A DNA stretch of 55,573 nucleotides. It comes from a bacterium. GTDB lineage: Bacteria > Patescibacteriota > Minisyncoccia > Phycocordibacterales > Phycocordibacteraceae. This document shows positions 1 to 44,647 of this stretch, piece by piece; positions within the stretch are counted from its first letter, which is position 1, and each line of letters starts with the position of its first letter. The position numbers and the translations under genes are program-made. The notes beneath the pieces are model-generated. The model searched no databases. It was not told the DNA's origin and was given only the letters and a program-made list of their open reading frames with translations. The stretch covers positions 1 through 55,573 of the forward strand of contig JAJZTG010000005.1 in assembly GCA_021849125.1 (NCBI GenBank), read 5' to 3'.

Positions 1-96
1 ACTGTCCGCCGTGGTGGGTGATGACCATATAGTGCTTTCATTTTAGCACGAAATACACGAATAAAGAAGCACACGCCCGCCGCTCCGCAGCGGGCG

Positions 97-105
97 TGCT
101 ATAGT
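97..105 (+). promoter_or_regulatory. -10-like box TGCTATAGT upstream of the first CDS
   Basis: Same TGCTATA(G/C)T motif recurs at 588-596 and 2323-2331 upstream of other + strand genes. Confidence 0.4.
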
Positions 106-177
106 CTCCCCAGGAGCTCCTTGCAGAAGATCGTACGGATCTCCCACTCCCGAAACCAGGAAAGTTAGGAGGCTGTT

Positions 178-510
178 ATGAACCAAGTCTTCACCAAGAA
201 GAAGCTGGCTGCTGCGCTGACGTTAGCGTTCGTCGCCGGCGGTGCTGCTCTGCTCGCCGTGGCGCCAGTGCCCGGTCTGGTTGCCGCAGCACAAGCTGAC
301 CAATCCGCAAACGCGAGCCAAAACGCGGACTGGGACTCCACCAAAGGCGACATCTGGGCCAACGACAAAAGGCCAACGCCTTCCCCGGCCCTTGGTAGCG
401 ATTCCAAGGCACAAACCGCCAACGAAGGCTGGACGGATTGGCCGAACAACGACGGTGTCACTGCCGACGGCATCGTGAAGTCCGACCCGAGCATCAAGTT
501 CATCATCTGA
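178..510 (+). CDS. small secreted protein of unknown function
   Basis: AGGAGG 6 nt upstream of ATG. N-terminus KKKLAAALTLAFVAGGAALLAVAPVPGLVAAAQA looks like a Sec signal peptide. Followed by hairpin GCACCCTCC-CACA-AGGAGGGTGC plus T-run at about 549-580. Confidence 0.6.
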   Translation: MNQVFTKKKLAAALTLAFVAGGAALLAVAPVPGLVAAAQADQSANASQNADWDSTKGDIWANDKRPTPSPALGSDSKAQTANEGWTDWPNNDGVTADGIVKSDPSIKFII

Positions 511-683
511 CTGCCCGAGCCCGCGGCCAAGCAACCCGCTTAGCCGCCGCACCCTCCCACAAGGAGGGTGCAATTCTTTTATATATGTGCTATAGTCCTC
601 CCATCGCGTGCGACCAGTAAGAAGCGACTAACCCTTCGCGAAAGCGAACACCGCTCCCGAAAGCCTGCACCGCTTTATATTTC

Positions 684-1802
684 ATGTCTGAAGAAAAGAA
701 GGTTGTCGCACCGGCAGCCACCATTCATCTCTCGGAAGGTCACCCGATGGCCGCATTCGTCGAGTCCATCCCGACCCCGCCTTCCTCGGGCGACCTCGTC
801 GAGGGCACGATCATCGCGATCTCTCGCGGTCGTGTCTACGTCGCGCTCCCGCCGTTCGGTACCGGCCTCATCTACGGCCGCGAGTACCTGAACGCCGCTG
901 ACGTCCTCCGCAAGGCGAACCCGGGCGATACGATCAGCGCCAAGGTCGTCGATCCCTCTGGCCGTGACGGCTACATCGAGCTCTCCCTCAAGGAGGCGCG
1001 CCAGGCAGCTATCTGGGGCGAAGCCGAGACTGCGATCCTTTCGCAGACCCCGTACTCGCTCATCGTCGAGGAAGCGAACAAGGGCGGTCTCATCCTCTCG
1101 TGGCAGGGCATCCAGGGCTTCCTCCCGGCTTCCCAGCTCTCGAGCGAGCACTATCCGCGCGTGCCGGAGGGCGACAAGGACAAGATTCTTGGCGAACTCA
1201 TGCTCCTCGTCGGCAAGCCGCTTTCGGTCCGCATCATCACCGCAGACCCGAAGGAGAACAAGCTCATCTTCTCGGAGCGCACGGGCAACGAGGCTGAAGA
1301 GAAGGGTTCCCTCATCGACAAGTACCAGGTGGGTGATATCGTCGAGGGCGAAGTCACAGGTATCGTCGACTTCGGTATCTTCGTGAAGCTCGAGCAGGGT
1401 CTCGAGGGTCTCGCACACATCAGCGAGCTCGACTGGGGCCTCGTCGAGGATCCTCACGCGCTCTTTGCCGTAGGCGATACGGTCCGCGTGAAGATCATCG
1501 AGATCAAGGACGGCAAGATCTCCCTCTCGGTGAAGGCGCTCAAGGATAACCCGTGGCACACCGCCGACGAGCGTTACAAGAAGGGCATGGAGGTTCCGGG
1601 CGTCATCATCAAGTACAACAAGCATGGCGCACTCGCTTCCATCGAGGAAGGTGTCGCCGGTCTCATCCACGTGAGCGAGTTCGCCTCCCCGGCTGAGCTT
1701 CGCGAGACGCTTGAGCTCGGTAAGACCTATCCGTTCACGATTGCCCTCTTCGAGCCGAAGGAGCAGCGCATGACGCTCACCTATACGGCCAAGAAGAAGT
1801 AA
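684..1802 (+). CDS. rpsA: ribosomal protein S1-like protein (several S1 RNA-binding repeats)
   Basis: 372 aa with repeated G-x-V-x-G-x-V...GxFV/GL.H.SE motifs typical of S1 domains. Strong terminator hairpin follows at 1819-1863. Confidence 0.85.
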   Translation: MSEEKKVVAPAATIHLSEGHPMAAFVESIPTPPSSGDLVEGTIIAISRGRVYVALPPFGTGLIYGREYLNAADVLRKANPGDTISAKVVDPSGRDGYIELSLKEARQAAIWGEAETAILSQTPYSLIVEEANKGGLILSWQGIQGFLPASQLSSEHYPRVPEGDKDKILGELMLLVGKPLSVRIITADPKENKLIFSERTGNEAEEKGSLIDKYQVGDIVEGEVTGIVDFGIFVKLEQGLEGLAHISELDWGLVEDPHALFAVGDTVRVKIIEIKDGKISLSVKALKDNPWHTADERYKKGMEVPGVIIKYNKHGALASIEEGVAGLIHVSEFASPAELRETLELGKTYPFTIALFEPKEQRMTLTYTAKKK

Positions 1803-1818
1803 CTATTCGTAGTCAGAC

Positions 1819-1863
1819 ACGAAACACCCGCGGCGCCGTACGGCGCCGCGGGTGTTTCGTTTG
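1819..1863 (+). terminator. rho-independent terminator after the S1-like gene
   Basis: Perfect hairpin ACGAAACACCCGCGGCGCC-GTAC-GGCGCCGCGGGTGTTTCGT followed by TTT. Confidence 0.7.
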
Positions 1864-1929
1864 ACGTCATGCATGCTCGACGATAGGCTCTCAGAAGATT
1901 GCCCATTCACCAGACGAGGAGTGTTAACC

Positions 1930-2277
1930 ATGTCTACCAAGGCTACCCTGTATATTGTCCGTTTTACCGCTCGTTCGACGATGCCTGAAGGTGTCGAGCC
2001 GTTTAACCTCTGGGGCGAACTCAGAGAAGCCATGAACACGCCGTCCAAATTCGTCATTTATACACCCGCAACGTGCTTCTCGGTACCCAACGCCCCTCAT
2101 CCGTTTACTACGCAAGAAGTGCGGATATCATTTATCCAGAAACCGTCTGACCGGGAACTCTCTGCGCTGCTGTCCCGGCTTGAGGAAGCGGTGCGTGTAA
2201 ACGGGCGCTACTCGACCCGCGGCCTCACCGCGCTCGACGCATGGTCAGGTTTCGAACTCACCATCACACGCGAATGA
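1930..2277 (+). CDS. hypothetical protein (115 aa)
   Basis: GAGGAG 8 nt upstream of ATG 1930. ORF ends before terminator ACGGCGCCC-TCG-GGCGCCGT+TTTTT. No recognisable motifs. Confidence 0.5.
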   Translation: MSTKATLYIVRFTARSTMPEGVEPFNLWGELREAMNTPSKFVIYTPATCFSVPNAPHPFTTQEVRISFIQKPSDRELSALLSRLEEAVRVNGRYSTRGLTALDAWSGFELTITRE

Positions 2278-2338
2278 ATCGTCTCTTCATTTTGTCACGG
2301 CGCCCTCGGGCGCCGTCGTTTTTGCTATACTCGCACTC

Positions 2339-2944
2339 ATGAAGCAAGTGGTGATCATCCATGGCGGGGATACGTTCAAGAGCTACGACGATTACCTCTC
2401 ACACCTCAAGGAAAAGAAAATCGAGAGTCTGGACTACTTCATCGGGTATCCGGACTGGAAACAGACCTTCCAACTCTATCTCGGCTTTGGCGGGAACTAT
2501 CAAGTCATCTCCCCACGGATGCCCAACAAGCAGAATGCGAAGTATCTCGAATGGCAGATCTGGTTCGAAAAACTCATCCCTTTTCTGGAAGATGGTGCTA
2601 TTCTCGTCGGACACTCGCTGGGTGGGAGTTTCTTGGTGCGGTACCTGGCAGAAAACAGGCTGCCGATCCGCCTTGATGGTATCTTCCTCGTCGCCGTACC
2701 ATACGACGCGGACGATGAGCTTACTGAGGAATTCGCCGCACCGGCTTCCTTCTCGCTTCTTTCCGAGCAATGCGCCAATATCTTCCTGTATTACAGCGAG
2801 GACGACCCTGTCGTACCCTTTACTGAGCTCGCGAAGTACCAAGCGGCACTTCCTCAGGCGACCGTACGTACTTTTACCGATCGCGGACACTTCTTCGCTC
2901 AAGAAACCTTTCCTGAACTCGTCGAGGACATCAAGGGTCTCTAG
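2339..2944 (+). CDS. alpha/beta-fold serine hydrolase (YdeN/RBBP9-like family)
   Basis: About 200 aa with nucleophile elbow GHSLGG and a C-terminal D...H (FTDRGHF). -10 TGCTATACT at 2323-2331 lies 7 nt before the ATG (leaderless). Confidence 0.75.
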   Translation: MKQVVIIHGGDTFKSYDDYLSHLKEKKIESLDYFIGYPDWKQTFQLYLGFGGNYQVISPRMPNKQNAKYLEWQIWFEKLIPFLEDGAILVGHSLGGSFLVRYLAENRLPIRLDGIFLVAVPYDADDELTEEFAAPASFSLLSEQCANIFLYYSEDDPVVPFTELAKYQAALPQATVRTFTDRGHFFAQETFPELVEDIKGL

Positions 2945-3059
2945 ACAAGGTCAAATCTTGTTCAGATATAAAAATGAAGACCGCCGGAACTGCTTGGGTG
3001 GGTATCTAATCCAATCCCAATCCGGCGGGAGCACAGGGGCTCGGGATTATCGTAACAAA

Positions 3060-3656
3060 TCAGCGCGTATTCGCGAACATGGTCGCCGCTTCGACACCCT
3101 CGGCCGCGAAGAGCTGCACCGCTTCGACCGTCTTCTTGAGCGCTTTCTTGAGGGTCGCTTCTTCGGTCGGCTTGAACTTGCCGATCACGTGCTTCACCAC
3201 TTTCTCCTCTCCGGAGACTTTCTTCGCCTGGTTCTTCTTCCCTGCGGCGCTTATACCGATACGGATGCGCGTGAAATCTTTCGTCTTTACGGAGCGCATG
3301 ATGCTTTCGATGCCTTTGTGCCCGCCGCTTCCCCTGCCTACGACCATCTTGATGGTGCCAAGCGGCAGATCGAGGTCATCTTGGAGCACGACCATGCTTT
3401 TTGCGGCTTTAGGCGTCTTCACGAACGCGGCAACCGCTTTCCCAGAAAGGTTCATCATCGTCTCGGGCAAGACCAGCGTCGCTTTCTCGCCTTCTACCTC
3501 TCCTTTTGCCACGAGCGCATTGCTCGTCTTGTTAAAAACGAAATTATCGAAGCCTTCCTGTTTCGCGAGAAGCTCGACCGCCATGCGCCCCGCGTTGTGT
3601 CGCGTCTTTTCGTACTCTTTGCCCGGATTTCCGAGCCCAACGATGACGAGTGCCAT
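3060..3656 (-). CDS. pth: peptidyl-tRNA hydrolase
   Basis: MALVIVGLGNPGKEYEKTRHNAGRM... is the canonical Pth N-terminus. I chose the internal ATG at 3656 within the longer ORF 3060..4004. Confidence 0.9.
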   Translation of the reverse strand: MALVIVGLGNPGKEYEKTRHNAGRMAVELLAKQEGFDNFVFNKTSNALVAKGEVEGEKATLVLPETMMNLSGKAVAAFVKTPKAAKSMVVLQDDLDLPLGTIKMVVGRGSGGHKGIESIMRSVKTKDFTRIRIGISAAGKKNQAKKVSGEEKVVKHVIGKFKPTEEATLKKALKKTVEAVQLFAAEGVEAATMFANTR

Positions 3657-3844
3657 TGCATGAAATGATATCACGAGTACGAACATGCAGTACCCAGAGC
3701 GAATCACGAACCGCACACCATGTGCGATAGGTCGTGACAGGGTGCGACACGAAATCGCGACCTTGCGGAGTCGACGAAGTAGTGTCGCGGGTACCCGCAC
3801 AGACCGACAAGCAAATGGTGTGCGGTTCGTGATATGCAAAAATG

Positions 3845-3872
3845 TTGACGCGCAAAACCGTTCGCGTACAAT
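3845..3872 (+). promoter_or_regulatory. sigma70-like promoter of lepB (TTGACG-16 nt-TACAAT), leaderless
   Basis: -35 TTGACG at 3845-3850 and -10 TACAAT at 3867-3872. The ATG at 3879 lies 6 nt after the -10 box with no SD. Confidence 0.6.
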
Positions 3873-3878
3873 GCACGC

Positions 3879-4454
3879 ATGCAAGACAACGGAAAGGGTC
3901 TTCTGAAGGATCTTTTCACGCTCGCGTTCCTTATTATCGTCGTCGTCATACCGATCAGGCTCTTCGTCGTCTCCCCGTTCGTAGTCGATGGCGAGTCGAT
4001 GCACCCCACCTTCGAGAATCTCGACTACCTCATCGTCAATGAACTCATCTACGTTTTCAAGTCCCCTGCTCGTGGCGACGTGATCGTCTTCCGCTACCCG
4101 GGAAATCCTTCGATCTTCTACATTAAGCGCGTCATCGGCCTCCCTGGCGAGACCGTCTCGATCGTAAAAGGTTCTGTCTCTATCACCGCAGCCGACGGTG
4201 CCACGTTCGAACTTCCCGAGCCCTACATCGTCTACGAGGACGCCACCTATACCAAGAAAGTTACCTTGGGTCCGGACGAATATTTCGTTATGGGTGATAA
4301 TCGCCCGAACAGTTCCGACAGCCGCGTATGGGGGGTTCTGCCTGTAAAGAACATCATCGGCCGCGCCGACCTGCGTCTTCTCCCGCCCTCAGAAAGCGGA
4401 TTCTTCCCGGGTACGACGCAGTACAACCTCGCTTCGACCACGCCTGCCTCATGA
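3879..4454 (+). CDS. lepB: signal peptidase I
   Basis: N-terminal TM segment, catalytic-Ser box VVDGESMHPTF, box E GDNRPNSSDSR. Confidence 0.9.
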   Translation: MQDNGKGLLKDLFTLAFLIIVVVIPIRLFVVSPFVVDGESMHPTFENLDYLIVNELIYVFKSPARGDVIVFRYPGNPSIFYIKRVIGLPGETVSIVKGSVSITAADGATFELPEPYIVYEDATYTKKVTLGPDEYFVMGDNRPNSSDSRVWGVLPVKNIIGRADLRLLPPSESGFFPGTTQYNLASTTPAS

Positions 4455-5599
4455 TGCGCACCACCATCCCGGCCGAAGAGATCCTGCATAAGGCGCATAG
4501 CGTCGGTCAATACTACGGCTTCCGCCCGCTTGCCGATCTCACCGCAAAAGCACGTGGTGCGGCCCGCGCAAAGGGCTATCCTGAAACGCTCGCGGGCATC
4601 ACGCTTGATCCTTCTGCTGAGTCTGTCGCGAGCTTTCTCAAGCAGTGCCAGAACATCGAGGCAGTGCCGTCGAGCCGTCAGCCGCTCTTCCTTTGGCATA
4701 CCAACATCGCTGCCGGACGCGCGCCTCAGAAAAAGGCGGTCGTGCAGTTCCACACGATCGGCGCCGATCGCGCGCTTGCTGATGCGGCGATCATCCGCGC
4801 GGCGCTCGCGCTTGTCCGTGACCTCTATCACGAGGAGCCAGTCCTGCGCATAAACTCGATGGGCGACAAAGAGACGCGCGCCCGCTACGCGCGCGAGCTT
4901 GGCAACTTCTTCAAGAAGCGTGCAGGCACACTCTCCGAAGAATGCCTTTCCCGTGCGAAAAGCGACGCCTTCGATGCGGCAGAATACATCATCGCGAACG
5001 AATGCGCGGATGAGCTCCCTGCGCCGACCGAACACCTCTCCGACGCGAGCCGCAAGCGTTTCGAAGACCTGCTCGAATACCTTGAGATGACCGAGACGCC
5101 GTACGAGCTCGCGCGCACGCTCCTCTCCCGCGGCAACGCGTGGAATGACCTCTGCTTCGAGATCCTCGCGGGCGAGAAGCGTGTCGCCTGGGGTTCGCGC
5201 TACAACGAGCTTGCGCGCCATTTCTTCAAGACGCCGTCACCGTTAACCGCGACTGGCGTCGTACTCACCTTTGCAAGCGGCGGTACGGCGGTCGTGAAGA
5301 AGGCACCGAGTCCGCGCATCCGCTTCTCGTTCGTCCACATCGGCGACGAAGCGAAACGCCTGTCGATCAAACTCGCTGAAGATCTGCGGAAAGCGCGTGT
5401 GCCCTTGGTGCAGCATATCGGCGTCGAGTCCCTCACCGAGCAGATGCTCCTCGCCGAACATGCTTCGACTCCGTATCTCCTCATCATGGGCCGCAAGGAA
5501 GCTCTCGAGTCTTCTGCCATCCTTCGCCATCGCGAGAATCAGACCGAGACCACCATCCCGCTTGCAAGCCTTATTGAACGGCTTAAGGCAACGGCGTAG
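4451..5599 (+). CDS. histidyl-tRNA synthetase-like protein with degenerate catalytic motifs and an intact anticodon-binding domain
   Basis: RINSMGDKETRARYARELGNFF resembles the HisRS LNS(I/L)G...R..Y region. The C-terminal about 90 aa resembles the class IIa anticodon-binding domain. Start ATG 4451 overlaps the lepB stop (ATGA). Motif 2, motif 3 and the LRPEGT box are all altered (see finding). Confidence 0.6.
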   Translation: MMRTTIPAEEILHKAHSVGQYYGFRPLADLTAKARGAARAKGYPETLAGITLDPSAESVASFLKQCQNIEAVPSSRQPLFLWHTNIAAGRAPQKKAVVQFHTIGADRALADAAIIRAALALVRDLYHEEPVLRINSMGDKETRARYARELGNFFKKRAGTLSEECLSRAKSDAFDAAEYIIANECADELPAPTEHLSDASRKRFEDLLEYLEMTETPYELARTLLSRGNAWNDLCFEILAGEKRVAWGSRYNELARHFFKTPSPLTATGVVLTFASGGTAVVKKAPSPRIRFSFVHIGDEAKRLSIKLAEDLRKARVPLVQHIGVESLTEQMLLAEHASTPYLLIMGRKEALESSAILRHRENQTETTIPLASLIERLKATA

Positions 5600-5636
5600 A
5601 CAATCCGTAGCCCCTTGTGGTAGGATGTCCTCTATT

Positions 5637-5900
5637 ATGGCAGCAGCAGAAGCAATACGAGTCGAAGTGCGCCGCGGCAAGAACGAGAGTTCGATGTCGC
5701 TTATCCGCCGCTTCACCCGCCGCGCCCAGGGCCTCGGCGTCGTTCGCGCCGTGCGCGATGGCCGCTACTGGGAGCGCGACAAGTCGAAGAACGTCGAGCG
5801 CAAGCGCGCCCTCGTCTCCCTTGCCCGCCGCAAGAACTACAACGAGCTCGTGAAGCTCGGCAAGATCGACCCGACTGCGCGCAAGACGCGCCGCCGCTAA
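5637..5900 (+). CDS. rpsU: 30S ribosomal protein S21
   Basis: IRVEVRRGKNESSMSLIRRFTRR...ERKRA...ARRK, a basic 87-aa S21-like sequence. AGGA lies 11 nt upstream of ATG 5637 (ATG 5625 is an alternative). Confidence 0.85.
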   Translation: MAAAEAIRVEVRRGKNESSMSLIRRFTRRAQGLGVVRAVRDGRYWERDKSKNVERKRALVSLARRKNYNELVKLGKIDPTARKTRRR

Positions 5901-5909
5901 AGGCCCGGG

Positions 5910-6371
5910 ATGGCTGGTATCGACACTCGAAACATGACGCGGCGCTCAGTGCCGCGTTTTCCATATGCCCGCGTCGCCGACGAGGTTCTTCCCGACTGGG
6001 ATGTCTCCCTCGTATTCGTCGGTCCGAAGAAAGCACGCGATCTGAATATTGAGTTGCGTGGCAAATCATACATCCCGAACGTCCTCTCCTATGCGCTCGG
6101 GGAAAAGAATGGCGAGATCTTCATCTGCCTCGAGGAAGCCGAGCGTCAGGCGCCCGAACACGAGATGGATGCGCGCACCTTCGTCCTTTTCCTGTTTATC
6201 CACGGATTACTTCATTTGAAGGGACAGGCTCATGGCGCTACTATGGAGAGATGCGAAAAGGAACTCCTTGCGAAATACGCTCCGGGTCCGGCGCGCAAAT
6301 CCTCTCATGGCACGACGCATAGCAACCGGAATCGACATAGGCACCTACCAGGTAAAGGTAGTGGTCGTTGA
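5910..6371 (+). CDS. ybeY: endoribonuclease YbeY (rRNA maturation factor)
   Basis: HGLLHLKGQAHG matches the H-x3-H-x5-H zinc motif. The 3' end overlaps ftsA by about 65 nt. Confidence 0.85.
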   Translation: MAGIDTRNMTRRSVPRFPYARVADEVLPDWDVSLVFVGPKKARDLNIELRGKSYIPNVLSYALGEKNGEIFICLEEAERQAPEHEMDARTFVLFLFIHGLLHLKGQAHGATMERCEKELLAKYAPGPARKSSHGTTHSNRNRHRHLPGKGSGR

Positions 6372-7464
6372 GGAATTCTCCGATAAGAGTCGGGGACGTC
6401 AGCTGCGCATCATCGGTACCGGCCTTGCCGAATCGAAAGGGCTTCATCACGGCTACATCGTCAACAAGGAAGAAGTGACTGCCAGCATCCTCAAAGCGAA
6501 GGAACAGGCTGAAGCCACCGCTCGGGTCCCGATCCGCTCCGCATTCCTCGCGGTAGGAGGCATCTCGCTCGACGAGGCGCGCGCGACTGGTTCCGCGATC
6601 ATCTCCCGTGCGGACCAGGAAATCACCGCGCTCGACATTGATAAGGCGATCAAGAGCGCACGCGAAGCAGCTGCACCAGGTTTCCTCAACCGTCAGGTCC
6701 TCCACAGCATTCCGGTCGAGTACCGTGTCGATGGAGCGAAGGTGTTCGGCGACCCGGTCGGCATGAAAGGCGTCCGCCTCGAGATCGATTATCTCTTCGT
6801 CACCTGCCTCGCCCAGCATGCGGACATGCTCGCAAAGGCGGTCGAGGACGCCGACATCGAGATTGTCGATCAGATGGCGTCGCCTTTGGCTGGTTCCTAC
6901 GTGCTTCTCGAGGGCGAGCAGAAGATGAAAGGCTGCGTGCTTGCGAATATCGGCGCTGAGACTGTCTCGATCGTGGTTTACGATGAGGGTATCCCTATTT
7001 CCGTGAAGGTCTTCCCGACCGGCTCGAGCCACATTACCGACGACATCGCGCTCGGTTTCCGCATCTCGCTTGAAGAAGCGGAGCGGGTGAAGCTCGGACG
7101 CCTCTCCGGTACGATGTATCCGCGCAAGAAGATCGATGATCTCGTCTTGGGTCGCCTCTCGGCGATGTTCACGCTCATCGACAAGCACTTGAAGTCGCTC
7201 GGCCGCCGCGGCCCTTTGCCTGCCGGCATCATCATCTCGGGCGGAGGTGCCGGTATCGGGAACGTAAGCGACATCGCGAAAGGCTCGCTGAAGCTTCCAG
7301 CGCGTCTCGCCGAATTCCGCATCTCTTCCGACACTAAGATGCGTGATGCGACCTGGGCCGTCTCCTACGGTCTGGCACTCTGGGGCCTTACTGGTGACAC
7401 GAACGCCCCTAAGAAGAGCTTTTCTGCTTCCTTCAACAAGTTCATTCAGCAATTCCTCCCTTAG
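6307..7464 (+). CDS. ftsA: cell division protein FtsA
   Basis: Actin-like ATPase N-terminus IATGIDIGTYQVKVVVVE and ISGGGAG phosphate-2 motif. Lies immediately upstream of ftsZ. Confidence 0.9.
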   Translation: MARRIATGIDIGTYQVKVVVVEEFSDKSRGRQLRIIGTGLAESKGLHHGYIVNKEEVTASILKAKEQAEATARVPIRSAFLAVGGISLDEARATGSAIISRADQEITALDIDKAIKSAREAAAPGFLNRQVLHSIPVEYRVDGAKVFGDPVGMKGVRLEIDYLFVTCLAQHADMLAKAVEDADIEIVDQMASPLAGSYVLLEGEQKMKGCVLANIGAETVSIVVYDEGIPISVKVFPTGSSHITDDIALGFRISLEEAERVKLGRLSGTMYPRKKIDDLVLGRLSAMFTLIDKHLKSLGRRGPLPAGIIISGGGAGIGNVSDIAKGSLKLPARLAEFRISSDTKMRDATWAVSYGLALWGLTGDTNAPKKSFSASFNKFIQQFLP

Positions 7465-7569
7465 TTCGCTCAAAACGGGGTTCAGACGACAATTCGCATC
7501 CCGATATTGTCAATATTTGCATACTGGTCGGTTCTGTTATGATGGCGGTAATCAGCCAATTTTTAAGCC

Positions 7570-8853
7570 ATGTCTAAACGCGTTGAACCAGAAATCGAGA
7601 CATTTGCCCGCATCCGCGTGGTCGGTGTCGGAGGGTCCGGCAAGAATGCCGTCAATCACATGATCGAGTCGAAGGTGCGTGGCGTCGAGTTCATCGCGGT
7701 GAACTCCGATGCACAGGACCTGCATCGCTCGCTCGCTAAGAAGAAGATCCATATCGGCAAGAATCTCACTCGCGGGCTTGGCACCGGCATGAACCCGGAG
7801 CTCGGCAAGCGTGCAGCGGAAGAGACGCGTCAGGAGATCCAGGAAGCGCTTCAGGGTTCGGACATGGTCTTCATCACGGGCGGTATGGGTGGCGGCACCG
7901 GCACAGGCGCCTCGTCGGTCGTCGCGAAGATCGCGAAGGAATCCGGCGCGCTCGTTATTGCGGTCGTGACCAAGCCGTTCTCTTTCGAAGGTGCCCAGCG
8001 TAAGGACATCGCGGAGCGCGGCCTTGCCGATCTCAAGAAGGAAGTAGACGCCTTCATCGTGATCCCGAACGACAAGCTTCTCTCGGTGGTCGACATGAAC
8101 ACCACCGCCAAGAGCGCCTTTGCCATGTGCGATGAGATCCTTCGCCAGGCTGTCGAAGGCGTATCCGACATCATCACCACCCCAGGCGAGATCAACACCG
8201 ACTTCAACGACATCAAAGCCATTATGGAAGGCGCGGGCCCGGCCCTTATGGGTATCGGCATTTCCGAAGGAGACGACCGCGCTTCGACGGCCGCTAAACA
8301 AGCAGTTAATTCCCCACTTCTCGATGTTTCGATCGGTGGAGCGAAAGGCATCCTCTTCGTGGTCGCTTCGAACGACGACCTCGGCATCATGGAGGTCCAG
8401 GAGGCTGCAAAGGTTATCAACGAGTCGGTCGACAAGAACGCGAAGATTATCTTCGGCATGATGAAGGACGAAAAGCTCAAGAAGGGCCAGATCCGCATCA
8501 TCGTCATCGCGACCGGCTTCCCCGAGAGCGCTGCGCATGCAACCCCGCATGTCGCTGGCTCGGAGCGTTCGCTCTTCTCGATGGCACCGGCTGAGCGTGA
8601 AGAAGAACGTGGCCGCATCTATCACGAAGTCCTCAAGCGCGATGACCATGGTGAACCTGAAGAGACAGCCTCAAAGGAGAAACCTGACCTTAAGAAAAAG
8701 GAGCAGAAGGCCCAGCCTCTCGCTTCTCTTGAAAAAGAAGAGCCGATCGTGACGGCTGTCCCCCACAAGCGCGATGAGCTCGCGACGCCTTCACCGGAAG
8801 ATGATGGCGCCTGGGGAGCGATACCGGAATTCCTCCGTCGTCACAAGAAGTAA
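7570..8853 (+). CDS. ftsZ: cell division GTPase FtsZ
   Basis: VVGVGGSGKNAVNHM and the tubulin signature GGMGGGTGTGASSVVA. Acidic/basic C-terminal linker and tail. Confidence 0.97.
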   Translation: MSKRVEPEIETFARIRVVGVGGSGKNAVNHMIESKVRGVEFIAVNSDAQDLHRSLAKKKIHIGKNLTRGLGTGMNPELGKRAAEETRQEIQEALQGSDMVFITGGMGGGTGTGASSVVAKIAKESGALVIAVVTKPFSFEGAQRKDIAERGLADLKKEVDAFIVIPNDKLLSVVDMNTTAKSAFAMCDEILRQAVEGVSDIITTPGEINTDFNDIKAIMEGAGPALMGIGISEGDDRASTAAKQAVNSPLLDVSIGGAKGILFVVASNDDLGIMEVQEAAKVINESVDKNAKIIFGMMKDEKLKKGQIRIIVIATGFPESAAHATPHVAGSERSLFSMAPAEREEERGRIYHEVLKRDDHGEPEETASKEKPDLKKKEQKAQPLASLEKEEPIVTAVPHKRDELATPSPEDDGAWGAIPEFLRRHKK

Positions 8854-8948
8854 CCTATACGAAAAACGTGTTGCGCGGCCGCCCCTCCGGGGCGGCCGCA
8901 TTCTTTTCCCCATTGCCCTGCTTTTGACCCCGCGTATACTAGGGGCAT

Positions 8949-9872
8949 ATGCATGACCTTATTATCGTGGGCGGCGGCCCCGCAGGCGTCGCAGCAGGCG
9001 TCTATGCGGCACGCAAACAGCTTAAGACCGTACTTATAAGCGAAGAGATCGGTGGCCAGTCCGTCGTCTCAGAAGGCATCGAGAACTGGATCGGTACCCC
9101 GAAGATCAGTGGTGCCGACCTCGCCAAAGCGCTCAAGGACCATCTTGAAGCGCTCAAGGGCGACATCGTAACGCTTGAGCTTGGTGAACGCGTCGCCTCA
9201 CTGGAGAAAACCGGCGACGACTTCCTCGTAAAGACGAAGTCCGGCAAGGAATTCACCGGCCGCTCCGTGCTTATCGCTTCCGGCGCAAGCCGCCGCAAGC
9301 TCGCTATCCCGGGCGCTGACAAGTTCGAGCACAAGGGTGTCACGTACTGCGCCTCCTGCGACGGCCCTGTCTTCGCTGGGCAGGATGTCGCGGTCATCGG
9401 CGGCGGCAATGCCGGCTTCGAGACCGCAGCGCAACTCCTCGCCTACGCGAAATCCGTTACGCTCATCCATCGCCACAAGGATTTCAAGGCAGACCCGGTG
9501 ACCGTCGAGAAGGTATCCGCACACCCGAACATGCGCGTTATCCGCCACGCGGAGCCGACCGCGGTTATGGGCGACCAGTTCGTCACCGGCCTCACCTATC
9601 TCGACAAGGACACGAATGAGACCAAAGAACTCCCGGTTACCGGCATCTTCGTCGAGGCGGGCGTGATGCCGAGTACCGACTTCGCTCACGGGCTTGTTGA
9701 TTTTGACCCGGTGGGCCATATCGTAACCGACCCGCGCACGCAGCGCGCAAGCATCGAAGGTATCTGGGCTGCCGGCGACTGTACCGATGAGCTCTACCAC
9801 CAGAACAACATCGCGGTCGGCGATGGTGTGAAAGCGGTCGAGGATCTCTACCTCTGGCTCAAGAAGCGCTAA
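8949..9872 (+). CDS. trxB: thioredoxin-disulfide reductase
   Basis: FAD motif IVGGGPAGVAAGVYAARK, redox CASC (YCASCDG), NADPH motif VIGGGNAGFE, GDC motif. Confidence 0.92.
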   Translation: MHDLIIVGGGPAGVAAGVYAARKQLKTVLISEEIGGQSVVSEGIENWIGTPKISGADLAKALKDHLEALKGDIVTLELGERVASLEKTGDDFLVKTKSGKEFTGRSVLIASGASRRKLAIPGADKFEHKGVTYCASCDGPVFAGQDVAVIGGGNAGFETAAQLLAYAKSVTLIHRHKDFKADPVTVEKVSAHPNMRVIRHAEPTAVMGDQFVTGLTYLDKDTNETKELPVTGIFVEAGVMPSTDFAHGLVDFDPVGHIVTDPRTQRASIEGIWAAGDCTDELYHQNNIAVGDGVKAVEDLYLWLKKR

Positions 9873-9895
9873 TCAATATCTCCGTCTGAAATGCA

Positions 9896-9927
9896 AACGG
9901 CCGGCGCATATGCGCCGGCCGTTTTTC
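9896..9927. terminator. palindromic (bidirectional) terminator after trxB
   Basis: AACGGCCGGCGCATATGCGCCGGCCGTT followed by TTTT. Confidence 0.7.
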
Positions 9928-10118
9928 TGCGGAGAGGGTGGGACCGATGATTACACCTTTTCTCCCTCGCCTCTCGTACTCGCCTTCGCTCGCACGAGGG
10001 CTGGGCACCGCCTCGCTGTCCTCGCCTGCTGGCTCGGACATGCTCCGGCGTTCGAATCCCCCACGCAAGACGCGCAGGCGTCTTGCTCCTCTCCGTAGCT
10101 TTCACTGCGTTCAATCAG

Positions 10119-10205
10119 CGGAGAGGGTGGGATTCGAACCCACGGTCCAGTTACCCGGACGCCGCATTTCGAGTGCGGTGCCTTCGACCACTCAGCCACC
10201 TCTCC
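10119..10205 (-). tRNA. tRNA-Ser (anticodon CGA)
   Basis: Reverse complement folds as GGAGAGG/TG/GCTGAGTGGTCGAAGGC/A/CCGCA-CTCGAAA-TGCGG/long variable arm/GTGGG-TTCGAAT-CCCAC/CCTCTCC/G. CCA is not encoded. Confidence 0.9.
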
Positions 10206-10904: not shown

Positions 10905-10977
10905 GCGCGGTTAGCTCAGTTGGTAGAGCATCTCATTGACGTTGAGAGGGTCAGGGGTTCGAGTCCCTTACCGCGCA
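10905..10977 (+). tRNA. tRNA-Val (anticodon GAC)
   Basis: GCGCGGT/TA/GCTCAGTTGGTAGAGC/A/TCTCA-TTGACGT-TGAGA/GGGTC/AGGGG-TTCGAGT-CCCTT/ACCGCGC/A, followed by a hairpin and T-run. Confidence 0.92.
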
Positions 10978-11187
10978 CAAGATAAAAGGCTCTGGATGCG
11001 AAGCATCTGGGGCCTTTTATTGTGACGCGGCAAGGGACTCGAAAGGTGTAGCAAGCTGGGCCAGCAGGCGAAGCAGCGAGCCCTGGGTTGCGGAAATTCC
11101 CGAGCGACGGCGAGGGAATTATCTGTGACCGTGCCCTTACCACGCCATATGTCGAACGAGACTGCTAAATCGTGCTATAACAAAGCC

Positions 11188-21529: not shown

Positions 21530-21901
21530 CTGGTGCGGGTACCGGGGTCTCAACCGAGGGATTGGGAATCCGTAGGATTTCAGAACGGTATTCGCACTTT
21601 GTGCGGGATACGAGAATCGAACTCGTGCCTAGTGCGCGGGAATGAAAGTCTGTAGGGCTTTCATCGGTTTTCCGTAGGAAAACCGGTTCTGCCACTTAAC
21701 CTAAGCTGTGCGGGTACCGGGAATCGAACCCGGGTCTCAACCGAGGGATTGGGAATCCGTAGGATTCCCAACGGTATTCGCACTTTGTGCGGGATACGAG
21801 AATCGAACTCGTGCCTAGTGCTTGGGAAGCACTCATTCTGCCACTAAACTAATCCCGCACAAAAAGCGAATGCCGGTTCTGCCGACTCAAACCATACCCG
21901 C
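21530..21901 (-). repeat. duplicated tRNA-like module: two copies of about 180 nt, including split and degenerate tRNA-like pieces around tRNA-Gly
   Basis: 21534-21706 and 21709-21901 align over most of their length. Only 21788-21858 folds as a canonical tRNA (see finding). Confidence 0.6.
21788..21858 (-). tRNA. tRNA-Gly (anticodon CCC)
   Basis: GCGGGAT/TA/GTTTAGTGGCAGAAT/G/AGTGC-TTCCCAA-GCACT/AGGC/ACGAG-TTCGATT-CTCGT/ATCCCGC/A. Confidence 0.88.
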
Positions 21902-38990: not shown

Positions 38991-39066
38991 TGGTGGGCAT
39001 GCCTGGACTCGAACCAGGAACCGCCGAGGTATAAGCTCGGTGCTCTAACCATTGAGCTACATGCCC
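38991..39066 (-). tRNA. tRNA-Ile (anticodon UAU), CCA encoded
   Basis: GGGCATG/TA/GCTCAATGGTTAGAGC/A/CCGAG-CTTATAC-CTCGG/CGGTT/CCTGG-TTCGAGT-CCAGG/CATGCCC/A-CCA. Confidence 0.85.
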
Positions 39067-42395: not shown

Positions 42396-42805
42396 GGGGG
42401 TGACCGGCTTTGACGGTCTGTACTTTGAAAGACGTGCGACGCAGTGCACTCTCGCCTACCACTTAAATCTAGCGAGAAAACATACTTGCAAAGAACACTC
42501 TTGCAAGCGTAAAGTCCCCGTACTTCGGTATGAAGGATTTTGCGTTCGCCTACGCGTAAACCGCTTTTTACCGGTTACGCCTAGCGCGACGTCTTCTTCC
42601 AGTCGGCGCCCACAGCGCTGGGTGAGGGCGGAATCTTCTGTGAGCTAGGATCGCGGCCGTCCGCCCGCGTTCCGAAACAAGGACTCATCGTGGAGTGGTT
42701 TCGTCTCGATTTTTACACCCACGACCAGATTTCAATTGGGACTATGCGTCGTAGACTCGCTTTCATAGCCAGATTCGGACGGGGGTTCGATACCCCCCAC
42801 CTCCA
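42396..42805 (+). ncRNA. ssrA: tmRNA (SsrA)
   Basis: 5' GGGGGTGACCGGCTTTGACGG and 3' GGACGGGGGTTCGATACCCCCCACCTCCA form the tRNA-like domain. A candidate tag ORF starts at GCA 42488 and ends ...DFAFAYA-TAA at 42557-42559. Adjacent to smpB. Confidence 0.88.
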
Positions 42806-42818
42806 CAAAGCAGCAAGA

Positions 42819-42840
42819 GGTCCGCGCAAGCGGACTTTTT
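42819..42840 (+). terminator. terminator after ssrA
   Basis: GGTCCGC-GCAA-GCGGAC followed by TTTTT. Confidence 0.65.
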
Positions 42841-43004
42841 GCTTTGTGGAGTGGAGCGAGCCGACTGCTCGGCTCGTGTGGGGTATCGAGAGGCGGAGCG
42901 TTGCGCGTGAGCGCCGCGAGCCGGGGTCGAGAGCGCTTAGCGGATTGTGAACACTTGGAACAATACGCTTAGCGACTCGTGACCAACCCGCACCTTCATA
43001 TTCT

Positions 43005-43044
43005 ACAATAACGAACCCGCTTGAGCGGGTTCGTTATTGTTTTA
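43005..43044. terminator. strong hairpin at the left edge of the AT-rich island
   Basis: ACAATAACGAACCCGC-TTGA-GCGGGTTCGTTATTGT followed by TTTTATTT. Abuts the stop codon of the 43042..43512 gene. Confidence 0.65.
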
Positions 43045-43512
43045 TTTCGAAGTATCGATAGCTATTTCGAGAGGTACTATCGCAACATTTTTAAAAGTGT
43101 TGGTATCGACATCCTTGAAATCGACAAGCACTTCGTAGTCACCTGTGATACTCACTGGTATATTTTCAAATCGCGTTCGTACTCGCATATTACGAATACC
43201 CTTTTCAATAGCGACCCTTCTTTCAGAATTGAAGTTCGTCTTACCTTTTGGATCTTGTAAGCGAATACGGATATCAAACGCGCTTGGACGCCCCGCGTCA
43301 GGTCGGAAAAATCGACTAACAACCTCAAAAGGAAGCGAGAAAACAATGCCATCTTTCTTCTCTTCTTTAACTTTCTCCATTACATCTTTCGGAACATTGA
43401 TTGTTATTTTCTCGATAAGATTTGAGAGACTGATATTATTGGTTTCTTTGTCTATTACAGAAGTTGAGCAAACTGCGGACCAAATATGTGTTATTCCTAA
43501 TTCTTTTTGCAT
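43042..43512 (-). CDS. hypothetical protein (156 aa, predicted beta-rich), third gene of the island operon
   Basis: Full-length ORF in the AT-rich island. ATG lies 4 nt after the upstream stop (TAA-AACC-ATG). No motif I recognise. Confidence 0.55.
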   Translation of the reverse strand: MQKELGITHIWSAVCSTSVIDKETNNISLSNLIEKITINVPKDVMEKVKEEKKDGIVFSLPFEVVSRFFRPDAGRPSAFDIRIRLQDPKGKTNFNSERRVAIEKGIRNMRVRTRFENIPVSITGDYEVLVDFKDVDTNTFKNVAIVPLEIAIDTSK

Positions 43513-43516
43513 GGTT

Positions 43517-43918
43517 TTAGATTGTTACTGTTTGAGCGGTATTCCTCGGCATTGACCAAATCCCTCCCCACTGGTTTACACTCATAAAACCCGATGCCGA
43601 ACTAGAAACCGATTCTAAAGCGTACTCGTATGCCGGAACCCCTTCCAAATGAAGCTTGGGGGCCTCCAATGTAGCTCCAACTGCTCTAGCAATCTTCTTT
43701 AGAAGAGGATGGCTTGGGAGGACAGCTCCTGTCTCCGCTCTGGCAATACTAGACTGTGTGGTCTGTGCAAGTTCAGCAAGACGCGCTTGAGTAAACCCGC
43801 GTGAGATACGAGCTTTTGTAATAATTGCACTTACATCCGCATCGTAGCGATCTTCCCATTTTCTCTCTCGTGAAGAGAGAATTTTCTTAGTTACGGTATG
43901 GATATTTTTTATGCTCAT
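43517..43918 (-). CDS. XRE-family helix-turn-helix protein (133 aa)
   Basis: ISRGFTQARLAELAQTTQSSIARAETGAVLPSHPLLKKIARAVG matches the HTH_3/XRE pattern. Has an about 30-aa N-terminal and an about 50-aa C-terminal extension. Confidence 0.75.
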   Translation of the reverse strand: MSIKNIHTVTKKILSSRERKWEDRYDADVSAIITKARISRGFTQARLAELAQTTQSSIARAETGAVLPSHPLLKKIARAVGATLEAPKLHLEGVPAYEYALESVSSSASGFMSVNQWGGIWSMPRNTAQTVTI

Positions 43919-43926
43919 GGTTTTAT

Positions 43927-44274
43927 TTATTTTTGTAACTTCTTCGCGGCCGCTTCACGGACTTTTTTTGGGAGAATACGCCCTCTCTTCCTTTGAATAT
44001 CGACGACCCAAAACATGCAGTCACGCAATGATCCTATTGGCACAGTTTGACCCAAGAGACGAAACGAACCAATCACTAACTCCTGGAGAGGCTTGGGAAG
44101 CAAATCCTTTAATACTTCCGCTTTCCTCAATTGAAGGAGCTGCTGCCCTTGCACCTCCTGCATCTTTGAATCAATCTGCTCAATGTCAGTTGTTTCAAGA
44201 TGCTCTAGTTGCTCTTCAGCACAAGACGTGAGTGCTACGCTGATTAGCATTGGCTTCTTGTCCAAATCTGACAT
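43927..44274 (-). CDS. hypothetical protein (115 aa), first gene of the island operon
   Basis: Acidic, coiled-coil-like N-half and basic C-terminus (IQRKRGRILPKKVREAAAKKLQK). TGCTATATT -10 lies 7 nt before the ATG. Confidence 0.5.
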   Translation of the reverse strand: MSDLDKKPMLISVALTSCAEEQLEHLETTDIEQIDSKMQEVQGQQLLQLRKAEVLKDLLPKPLQELVIGSFRLLGQTVPIGSLRDCMFWVVDIQRKRGRILPKKVREAAAKKLQK

Positions 44275-44647
44275 TTTTCTAATATAGCACTACCGCTATA
44301 TTTATACAACTACCCACTCTGCGCATAAACAGAGACGTTACCATGTGACCTTTCTTCCTGCGTGCGGTTATAGAAGGCAGAGGGGTTTGAAACTTGGCGG
44401 AGGTGGAGGCAGGTAAGGTTTGTCTGAGTTTTTTGCTTTCCGCACACTCGACATCCTTACCTCCTCCCCTCTCGGCCATCCTTATCTTCTTCAACTTCAA
44501 CCCTTCTACCTTGTCCTTTCTCGTCAGATGCATCTACACCTATCACTACCTCTTCCGCGTCTGACACCCCTGTTCCTTCTTCTTTTTCTTCCTCCCGTTC
44601 CTTTTCTTCCAAGACCAGCTTTGCTGGTCTTTTTGTATACTGCTTGT

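Follow-up and report, generated by a model that had tools for sequence, protein, structure and literature searches.

Small modules that copy the ends of tRNA and tmRNA genes: a candidate family of target-copying insertion elements in Paceibacteria

A module behind tRNA-Ser(CGA)

The stretch analysed here, referred to throughout as the window, comprises 55,573 nucleotides (nt) of contig JAJZTG010000005.1 (assembly GCA_021849125.1), and the relatives of its trxB gene are found in Kaiserbacteria/Paceibacterota metagenome-assembled genomes (MAGs) of the candidate phyla radiation (CPR). Between trxB and the gene for tRNA-Ser(CGA) lies a module that repeats, once directly and once inverted, the last 25 nt of this tRNA gene (T-loop to discriminator, plus 1 nt). 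We describe here the module and the family to which it belongs, which probably consists of small insertion elements that copy their targets. All of the evidence is comparative and comes from MAGs. In the direction of the tRNA, the parts of the locus are as follows.

10118-10205, minus strand: host gene tRNA-Ser(CGA) (ARAGORN; Rfam tRNA, 59.6 bits)
10098-10117, minus strand: spacer from the tRNA-Ser(CGA) end to the module (from the sequence, compared with the spacers of relatives)
10088-10097, minus strand: left (inverted) arm, acceptor part; complement of the tRNA acceptor 3' strand and discriminator
10065-10086, minus strand: hairpin insert, 9-bp stem and 4-nt loop, exactly at the boundary between the acceptor part and the T part of the left arm
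10050-10064, minus strand: left arm, T part; complement of the T-stem 3' strand and T-loop
9958-10049, minus strand: A-type core, divergent copy (alignment with the tRNA-Val module, A-core consensus and covariation, fold)
9946-9957, minus strand: small hairpin GGUG-UAAU-CAUC directly before the right arm, counterpart of the GYG-UAMU-CRC hairpin of relatives
9926-9943, minus strand: right (direct) arm; T-stem 3' strand, acceptor 3' strand, discriminator and 3 nt, 17/18 identical
9895-9924: flank outside the module; perfect 15-bp palindrome, terminator-like, between trxB and the putatively displaced tRNA end

A sequence-only reading of this DNA had proposed a 15-nt direct copy of the tRNA 3' end. 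The copy is exact: GCGGAGAGGGTGGGA occurs exactly twice in the window (9929-9943 and 10118-10132), with no match in 100 shuffles, and the repeat extends to 18 nt with 17 identical positions (9926-9943 versus 10115-10132). The inverted copy described in the same reading, split by a perfect 9-bp hairpin, was likewise confirmed (10050-10064 and 10088-10097). Its T part begins with GTTCGAATCCC (10050-10060), 11 nt that are 100% complementary to positions 10129-10139 of the tRNA gene, while CCTCTCCG (10088-10095) is the inverted acceptor 3' strand with the discriminator; the stem of the intervening hairpin is formed by 10065-10073 and 10078-10086. The core retains GCCGGAGC...GCGAGGCGG, a covarying GCC/GGC pair and two internal hairpins. 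A terminator scan called no terminator hairpin in the spacer 10098-10117, though most family members have one there, and did not call the palindrome at 9895-9924. The predicted fold of the tRNA-sense strand has an energy of -92.1 kcal/mol (z = -6.85) against -78.6 kcal/mol (z = -4.3) for the plus strand, and the two ends of the module are paired in the predicted folds of both strands.

An independent assembly, locus L202 (ENA ERZ27237442, contig k141_664201), is 99.95% identical to positions 1-9932 of the window and departs from it within the direct arm, after TCTGCGG. From window position 9933 on, L202 (9946-10419) continues with unrelated sequence, which holds a 71-aa open reading frame (ORF) with no Pfam match and no tRNA. 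A rearrangement, a further insertion at this displaced tRNA end or chimerism of the contig could account for the break.

Anatomy of the module family

Read in tRNA sense, a module follows the order tRNA end, spacer, inverted left arm, core (A or B) and direct right arm. The spacer is, in most copies, a terminator-like hairpin whose stem extends into the arms. Two complementary stretches make up the left arm: the first corresponds to a few bases of the trailer together with discriminator and acceptor 3' strand, the second to the T-stem 3' strand and T-loop, the inverted copy spanning T54 to the discriminator; in 47 of 50 well-matched family members, a hairpin insert of 22-25 nt sits exactly at the acceptor/T-stem junction. 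The right arm contains part of the T-loop, an optional 15-nt hairpin (GYG-UAMU-CRC), the T-stem 3' strand, the acceptor 3' strand and the discriminator. Module size is uniform (130-190 nt), with a conserved interior of ~75-110 nt and ends that differ with the target. Arms that form inverted repeats around conserved interiors are reminiscent of miniature inverted-repeat transposable elements (MITEs), but these repeats are copies of the target, and there is no family-wide terminal inverted repeat (TIR). Outside the Kaiserbacteria-type MAGs (Nomura-, Zambryski- and Taylorbacteria, unclassified), many A-type copies are short-armed, with a conserved GCAAACUGCUUUGC-type hairpin marking the axis that separates the target from its inverted copy. 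Tandem arrays also occur, with three units in L125 and two in L197, and in L147 a composite A core carries a nested B core.

Two core types are conserved and interchangeable. Type A is found in the tRNA-Ser(CGA), tRNA-Val and ssrA copies of the window, and has the consensus R-GSC-RSAGC-[hairpin]-GCGAG-GS'C-GGGGUC-GMGA-[hairpin]-UYGUGACC; type B, found in the tRNA-Ser(GGA) copy, contains AAGGTGTACTGA-NNNN-GTA-NNNN-TCGA. The tRNA-Val copy, the conserved interior with its two covarying core types, and a set of repeats behind tRNA-Gly(CCC) go beyond what the sequence-only reading had noticed.

Distribution

A motif scan placed the B motif in at least 120 species-representative genome stretches, and all of the matches listed belong to Patescibacteria or unclassified MAGs (Kaiser-, Nomura-, Zambryski- and Taylorbacteria, among others). 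The set contains only copies with an intact motif; among its 127 instances, 90 lie downstream of a tRNA of the same sense, with a median distance of ~120 nt between tRNA and motif (range ~80-340). The 90 represent 29 anticodon types, and one further B copy follows a tmRNA (L163). An inverted 12-mer of the tRNA end, with at most two mismatches, accompanies 80 of the 90 tRNA-linked instances and an exact direct 13-nt copy 44 of them. As a control, 76 tRNA genes were taken from loci not selected for the element: within 250 nt downstream, 12 had the inverted 12-mer and 11 the direct 13-mer, and upstream neither copy was found (0/76). This upstream control and the absence of matches in 100 shuffles uphold the earlier argument that host-specific matching is not due to chance. 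Modules are borne by 16% of the tRNA genes in unselected Kaiserbacteria-type loci, and trxB-anchored loci of other species have them at tRNA-Glu, tRNA-Ser or tRNA-Val. The A-core scan pattern was too GC-rich to be specific: 17 of 129 instances across all loci collected adjoin a tRNA, all 17 in CPR or unclassified MAGs, and the non-tRNA instances are mostly chance matches in high-GC bacteria.

No ARAGORN tRNA lies upstream of 25 B-motif instances for which the full upstream sequence was at hand (L088, L096, L122, L139, L148, L156 and others). One of these is a later unit of the L125 tandem array and one follows the L163 tmRNA; in six that were scanned with Rfam, no RNA gene was found upstream of the module. 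The remaining instances could be truncated host genes or off-target insertions. The upstream sequence of L122 ends in TGGGGTCAC, which is the tRNA-Glu end mimicked by its module. An off-target insertion after 5S rRNA had been considered for L122 and was dropped, as Rfam found neither a 5S nor another RNA gene.

In L274, an A-type module with full arms and hairpin (~1851-2250) follows a tRNA-Ile(GAT) gene located directly 3' of the 16S rRNA gene, a position that should be heavily transcribed.

Insertion at a fixed point and change of target

Filled and empty sites were found when syntenic loci were compared, as the sequence-only reading had suggested for tRNA-Ser: orthologous tRNA-Ser(CGA) and tRNA-Glu sites are filled in some species and empty in others, and in locus L022 the tRNA-Ser(CGA) end lies 29 nt from trxB without a module. 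In Paceibacteria loci L001-L200, CCA is encoded by 31 of 111 empty tRNA genes (~28%) and by 6 of 93 filled ones (p = 5e-5), and CAA directly follows 47 of the 93 filled genes. CCA comes after the distal arm in 9 of 47 cases and after the proximal tRNA in 1 of 47. The identity between right arm and tRNA ends at discriminator +0 to +3 in 39 cases, with a minor class of 10 cases in which it ends just after the T-stem. Taken together, the CCA counts and these end points place the junction directly after the discriminator or C74, and indicate that the distal arm is the original gene end and the spacer with its terminator is inserted DNA. Based on the CCA statistics and the empty orthologous site in L022, the right arm at 9926-9943 probably marks the original 3' end of tRNA-Ser(CGA). 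The difference between empty and filled genes further suggests that insertion renders CCA-encoding genes CCA-less and reliant on the CCA-adding enzyme.

Core identity, counted with the non-conserved hairpin extensions, is 91-98% between copies located at tRNAs for Glu, Gln, Arg, Tyr, Lys, Leu and Val in different genomes, and these near-identical cores carry entirely different arms and differing hairpin inserts and spacers. Since point mutation cannot alter ~50 arm positions while the core stays nearly constant, the arms appear to be re-templated from, or converted by, the target. At the 93 filled tRNA sites, the distal copy is always within ~360 nt, with one exception at 750 nt, and no parent insertion sequence was found among these sites in ~200 loci.

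Folding, covariation and arm decay

Of the 19 pairs that alifold predicts for the B alignment, 13 have changed on both sides with pairing preserved, and the 4-bp stem within the motif exists in 35 distinct covarying versions. Read by eye, the two halves of the GCC/GGC or GGC/GCC pair in the A core change in concert throughout the 21 CPR-like instances listed. For 26 of 29 B modules, the tRNA-sense strand is the more stable one (mean -4.6 kcal/mol, p = 9e-6), and the 29 modules together have 77 G-U pairs in this strand compared with 32 in the other. The covariation of the cores, together with the better fold and the G-U excess of the tRNA-sense strand, points to a functional single strand of that polarity, which might be RNA or DNA.

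The arms behave differently. The right arm has diverged from the tRNA at 44 positions. Of these, the left arm still agrees with the tRNA at 36, with the right arm at 3 and with neither at 5; 89 further positions are altered in the left arm alone. This split argues that the acceptor/T minihelix is not kept by selection after insertion, and the pattern across copies shows what reads as neutral decay of the arms. Many copies have a perfect core motif between decayed or truncated arms. The minihelix of 7+5 bp proposed earlier can thus be drawn, with the ends pairing in the folds of both strands at tRNA-Ser(CGA), but it is not a conserved RNA structure, with compensatory change at only 3 of 44 positions.

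Searches for known families

No tRNA was called by ARAGORN or by Rfam (RF00005, E <= 10 in the regions scanned) over 9926-10097, 11020-11146, 33430-33580 and 42847-42998, so that identification of the modules as an ordinary RNA, which would have undone the earlier proposal, did not occur. No Rfam 15 family reached its gathering score at any module of the window, where E <= 10 yielded only tRNA, rRNA and sub-threshold noise; canonical A and B copies (L224, L036, L008, L274) gave the same at E <= 1. Known ribozymes and small RNAs (sRNAs) were rejected as candidates after a check by eye for hammerhead, HDV-like and twister cores and a permissive Rfam search, neither of which produced a match. In 2.9 million viral contigs the B motif has no match, and three A-motif matches were set aside as chance occurrences within coding sequence. 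The Pfam tables, which cover essentially the whole window, contain no DEDD recombinase family, and the modules hold no ORF. A full-text literature search of incomplete coverage found no published description of such elements, which agrees with the earlier statement that no element of this architecture was known.

Interpretation

We consider it reasonably probable that the modules are a family of non-autonomous, target-copying insertion elements of 130-190 nt in Paceibacteria, apparently undescribed and widespread in CPR bacteria; our confidence in the mechanistic details is lower than in the nature of the element. The insertion point would be immediately 3' of the discriminator base in a tRNA or tmRNA gene, and the element would move through a single-stranded intermediate, either DNA or RNA of tRNA sense. 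In this form the two arms would fold together and rebuild the acceptor/T helix of the target, and the rebuilt helix could be the target-recognition or processing site for a putative trans-acting enzyme, much like a folded att site or a guide. Each new target would serve as the template from which the arms are rewritten. The placement of the hairpin and the boundaries at the discriminator would suit an RNA stage with processing by RNase P and RNase Z, and would suit a folded single-stranded DNA site of the att kind equally well. A more specific version, which we put forward only tentatively and regard as less likely than not, though with a real chance, is a new kind of nucleic-acid-guided mobile element whose folded core travels as a single strand, rebuilds its arms and finds targets by base pairing, with no sequence-specific recombinase. 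The travelling strand might be an RNA whose two ends are both freed by the enzymes of tRNA 3' processing.

Several observations weigh against the insertion-element explanation. No pair of near-identical genomes differing by one module only was found, and a metagenome scan for an empty allele of the tRNA-Ser(CGA) site gave no matches. The copies in the window have diverged from one another, with no recent transposition evident there. Pfam found no transposase, recombinase, integrase or reverse transcriptase in the 55-kb window, where only housekeeping genes were seen, and no module encloses an ORF or holds a mobility gene. The rewriting of both arms around an internal hairpin is left unexplained by an insertion element. 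Instead of selection, the G-U bias could reflect C-to-T mutation of the sense strand linked to transcription, and intact cores with decayed arms could mean that what retains the core is a function in the host and not mobility.

Such a function is the basis of the strongest rival, a host-beneficial structured RNA gene in tRNA 3' trailers, in which the arms form a tRNA-like helix that allows RNase P and RNase Z to release a core RNA. It would account for the covarying core helices and the better-folding tRNA-sense strand, for a hairpin insert placed exactly where the tRNA body leaves the acceptor/T helix, for boundaries at the discriminator on both sides (the RNase Z site), and for cores that stay intact beside decayed arms; one copy follows the tRNA-Ile beside a 16S gene, and a unit behind tRNA-Gly is tRNA-like enough to be called by ARAGORN. 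However, the distribution is sporadic, with orthologous tRNAs filled or empty, most copies have a terminator-like hairpin between tRNA and module and no promoter-like site was found, and the arms show compensatory change at only the three positions given above. In addition, the discriminator is paired, the T-loop is replaced, the G3-U70 pair of tmRNA is not reproduced and two unrelated cores are interchangeable. We therefore regard a trailer RNA as rather unlikely as the whole explanation, while noting that it is compatible with an RNA intermediate of a mobile element.

The 3' ends of tRNA and tmRNA genes are classic integration sites, and direct repeats of the tRNA end flank the insert, so that the modules might be attL/attR scars left by integrase-encoding prophages or islands that have lost their interior; a low-GC stretch with an XRE-type ORF beyond the ssrA module would also fit. 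This explanation is improbable, given the uniform size of 130-190 nt, the same two cores in at least 120 genomes and at 29 anticodon types, which a single integrase cannot recognise, and the lack of an integrase in or near the modules, of cargo and of viral copies (the B motif is absent from the 2.9 million viral contigs and the A-motif matches there are chance). The earlier idea of small integrative or MITE-like elements accordingly stands as far as small insertions at tRNA and tmRNA 3' ends are concerned, but fails where it meant ordinary integrase-island scars. Local template switching at T-arm and terminator hairpins could produce a direct-inverted-direct triplication with no mobile element, and both this order and the turning points at palindromes (the terminator loop, TCGA of the T-loop) are as it predicts. 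We reject triplication without an element, leaving it only a slight chance, because cores and hairpin inserts are common to distant genomes and different tRNAs and because the third copy stops short of the proximal trailer and terminator; CCA, moreover, follows the distal arm rather than the proximal tRNA (9/47 versus 1/47). Template switching could nevertheless be a source of arm homogenisation after insertion. Chance matches or an assembly artefact come to mind since the window derives from a MAG and the near-identical L202 assembly breaks away inside the direct copy, but with no shuffle matches, an upstream control of 0/76 and the same architecture in independent assemblies of many studies, they can practically be dismissed.

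If the modules are insertion elements, their target-matched arms on near-identical cores imply that target specificity is rewritten from the target itself, and should this rewriting work by base pairing, they would take their place with bridge RNAs and the guides of IS608-type elements as a naturally programmable insertion system, and this in genomes otherwise poor in mobile elements. In a lineage that ranks among the largest of uncultivated bacteria, modules occupy a sizeable share of the tRNA and tmRNA loci and are at present unannotated; they can cause false tRNA calls and contig breaks, and they alter their target genes, which lose the encoded CCA and are supplied with a new terminator-like hairpin. 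Under any explanation, cores A and B make strong candidates as novel motifs of structured nucleic acid.

Comparison with known systems

Of the comparable families, each lacks a match to the modules in some defining feature that could be tested, be it an integrase, a family-wide TIR, an adjacent DEDD gene or a tRNA/Rfam match. Integrative elements that target tRNA genes (genomic islands and cis-mobilizable elements, CIME) similarly insert at the tRNA or tmRNA 3' end, leave the gene intact and create a direct repeat at the far side, but the modules measure ~170 nt, have no integrase or cargo, add an inverted target copy, use at least 29 tRNA types and have arms rewritten for each target. REPIN/RAYT systems and the palindrome-associated elements (PATEs) of IS200/IS605 share with the modules small size, lack of coding capacity, multiple copies, strand-asymmetric hairpins and a location between genes, close to terminators. 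Elements of the IS608 type read their target through an internal guide that base-pairs with the flank. The flank complement of a module is 20-25 nt long rather than ~4 nt, the element end repeats the target and the cores are unrelated to REP; in contrast to IS200/IS605, no Y1/HUH gene is among the Pfam families of the 55-kb window, the sole part of the genome covered.

Folded att sites offer a closer structural parallel. In attP(+) of CTX-phi and attC of integrons, an internal inverted pair can fold, with bulged elements, and rebuild the target duplex, as the arms of a module can do from T54 to the discriminator. The attP(+) site mimics dif. After integration the order is direct, inverted, direct, as in the modules. 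These sites, however, are served by a sequence-specific recombinase (XerCD, IntI) with one target, whereas the sequence mimicked by the modules varies and no phage or cassette is attached. The bridge (seek) RNAs of IS110/IS1111 are structured non-coding segments of similar size that match both target strands and make target choice programmable; the modules differ in having no DEDD gene next to any of them, in carrying 13-25 nt copies of one flank only and in showing no evident two-loop architecture.

Among tRNA-like structures (TLS of viruses, mascRNA, YrlA and the tRNA-like domain, TLD, of tmRNA), the likeness lies in acceptor-like and T-stem-like helices that could stack in the modules, with the hairpin at their junction. 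The modules nonetheless have no functional T-loop, their discriminator is paired, their sequence is copied from the neighbouring gene and their arms show no compensatory evolution. Sub-threshold matches to the Xanthomonas sRNA sX4 (RF02223) cover tRNA-Ser and the downstream complement of its 3' end; at 26-35 bits against a gathering score of 70, these are driven by the tRNA itself and do not cover the cores.

Other copies and tRNA-linked features in the window

Modules occupy 4 of the 10 tRNA/tmRNA loci in the window. The three copies other than that at tRNA-Ser(CGA) have the following parts.

11020-11146, plus strand: second A-type module, after tRNA-Val (10905-10978)
33430-33615, minus strand: B-type module after tRNA-Ser(GGA) (33616-33703)
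33586-33600, minus strand: terminator hairpin in the spacer of the tRNA-Ser(GGA) module
33566-33580, minus strand: left arm of this module
33547-33565, minus strand: hairpin
33533-33546, minus strand: T part
33463-33489, minus strand: motif of the B core
33430-33447, minus strand: right arm
42807-42998, plus strand: A-type module after ssrA (42396-42806), a degenerate form of the layout (42847-42998)
42807-42846, plus strand: terminator of the ssrA module
42847-42854, plus strand: left arm of this module
42855-42876, plus strand: hairpin
42877-42892, plus strand: T part
42893-42984, plus strand: consensus A core
42985-42998, plus strand: decayed right arm

In the tRNA-Val module, the left arm (11020-11043) has no hairpin insert and the right arm (11134-11146) is decayed, while an alignment revealed interior motifs common to this copy and that at tRNA-Ser(CGA). 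Between tRNA-Val and the module, a terminator-like hairpin (10984-11018) is seen by eye and was not called by the terminator scan. The layout at tRNA-Ser(GGA) and ssrA had been recognised in the sequence-only reading, and it holds at both: at tRNA-Ser(GGA) the direct repeat is identical in 18 of 18 positions (33430-33447 and 33613-33630) and the inverted copy (33533-33580) is split by a hairpin, and at ssrA the same order is present in its degenerate form.

A complex repeat structure follows tRNA-Gly(CCC) (21787-21858) on the minus strand, gene and repeats together spanning 21533-21858. Behind the gene lies a mini tRNA-like unit (21708-21781), identified as tRNA-Gly by ARAGORN and without an Rfam call, which is bounded by inverted ends (GTGCGAATACCG/CGGTACCCGCAC) and contains a 10-bp hairpin (loop UACG) as well as an intact T-arm. 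It is followed by a degenerate tRNA-Gly copy, the last ~34 nt of which equal the real gene, and then by a second unit with a deleted T-loop. Judging from its sequence, this structure may represent a third, coreless type of module.

Beyond the ssrA module, 43040-44420 is a low-GC stretch (~49%) with no called genes and three minus-strand ORFs, the middle one of which (43517-43918) is an XRE-type helix-turn-helix protein. Near its end, GGAGGTGG (~44397-44410) repeats the complement of the tmRNA acceptor 3' strand, and the stretch may be the remnant of a small island at ssrA. Elsewhere in the window, the tRNA-Ile at 38991-39066 has the anticodon UAU and an encoded CCA, which is uncommon in bacteria, and the RNase P RNA at 28230-28556 scores 114 bits, barely above the Rfam threshold of 100.

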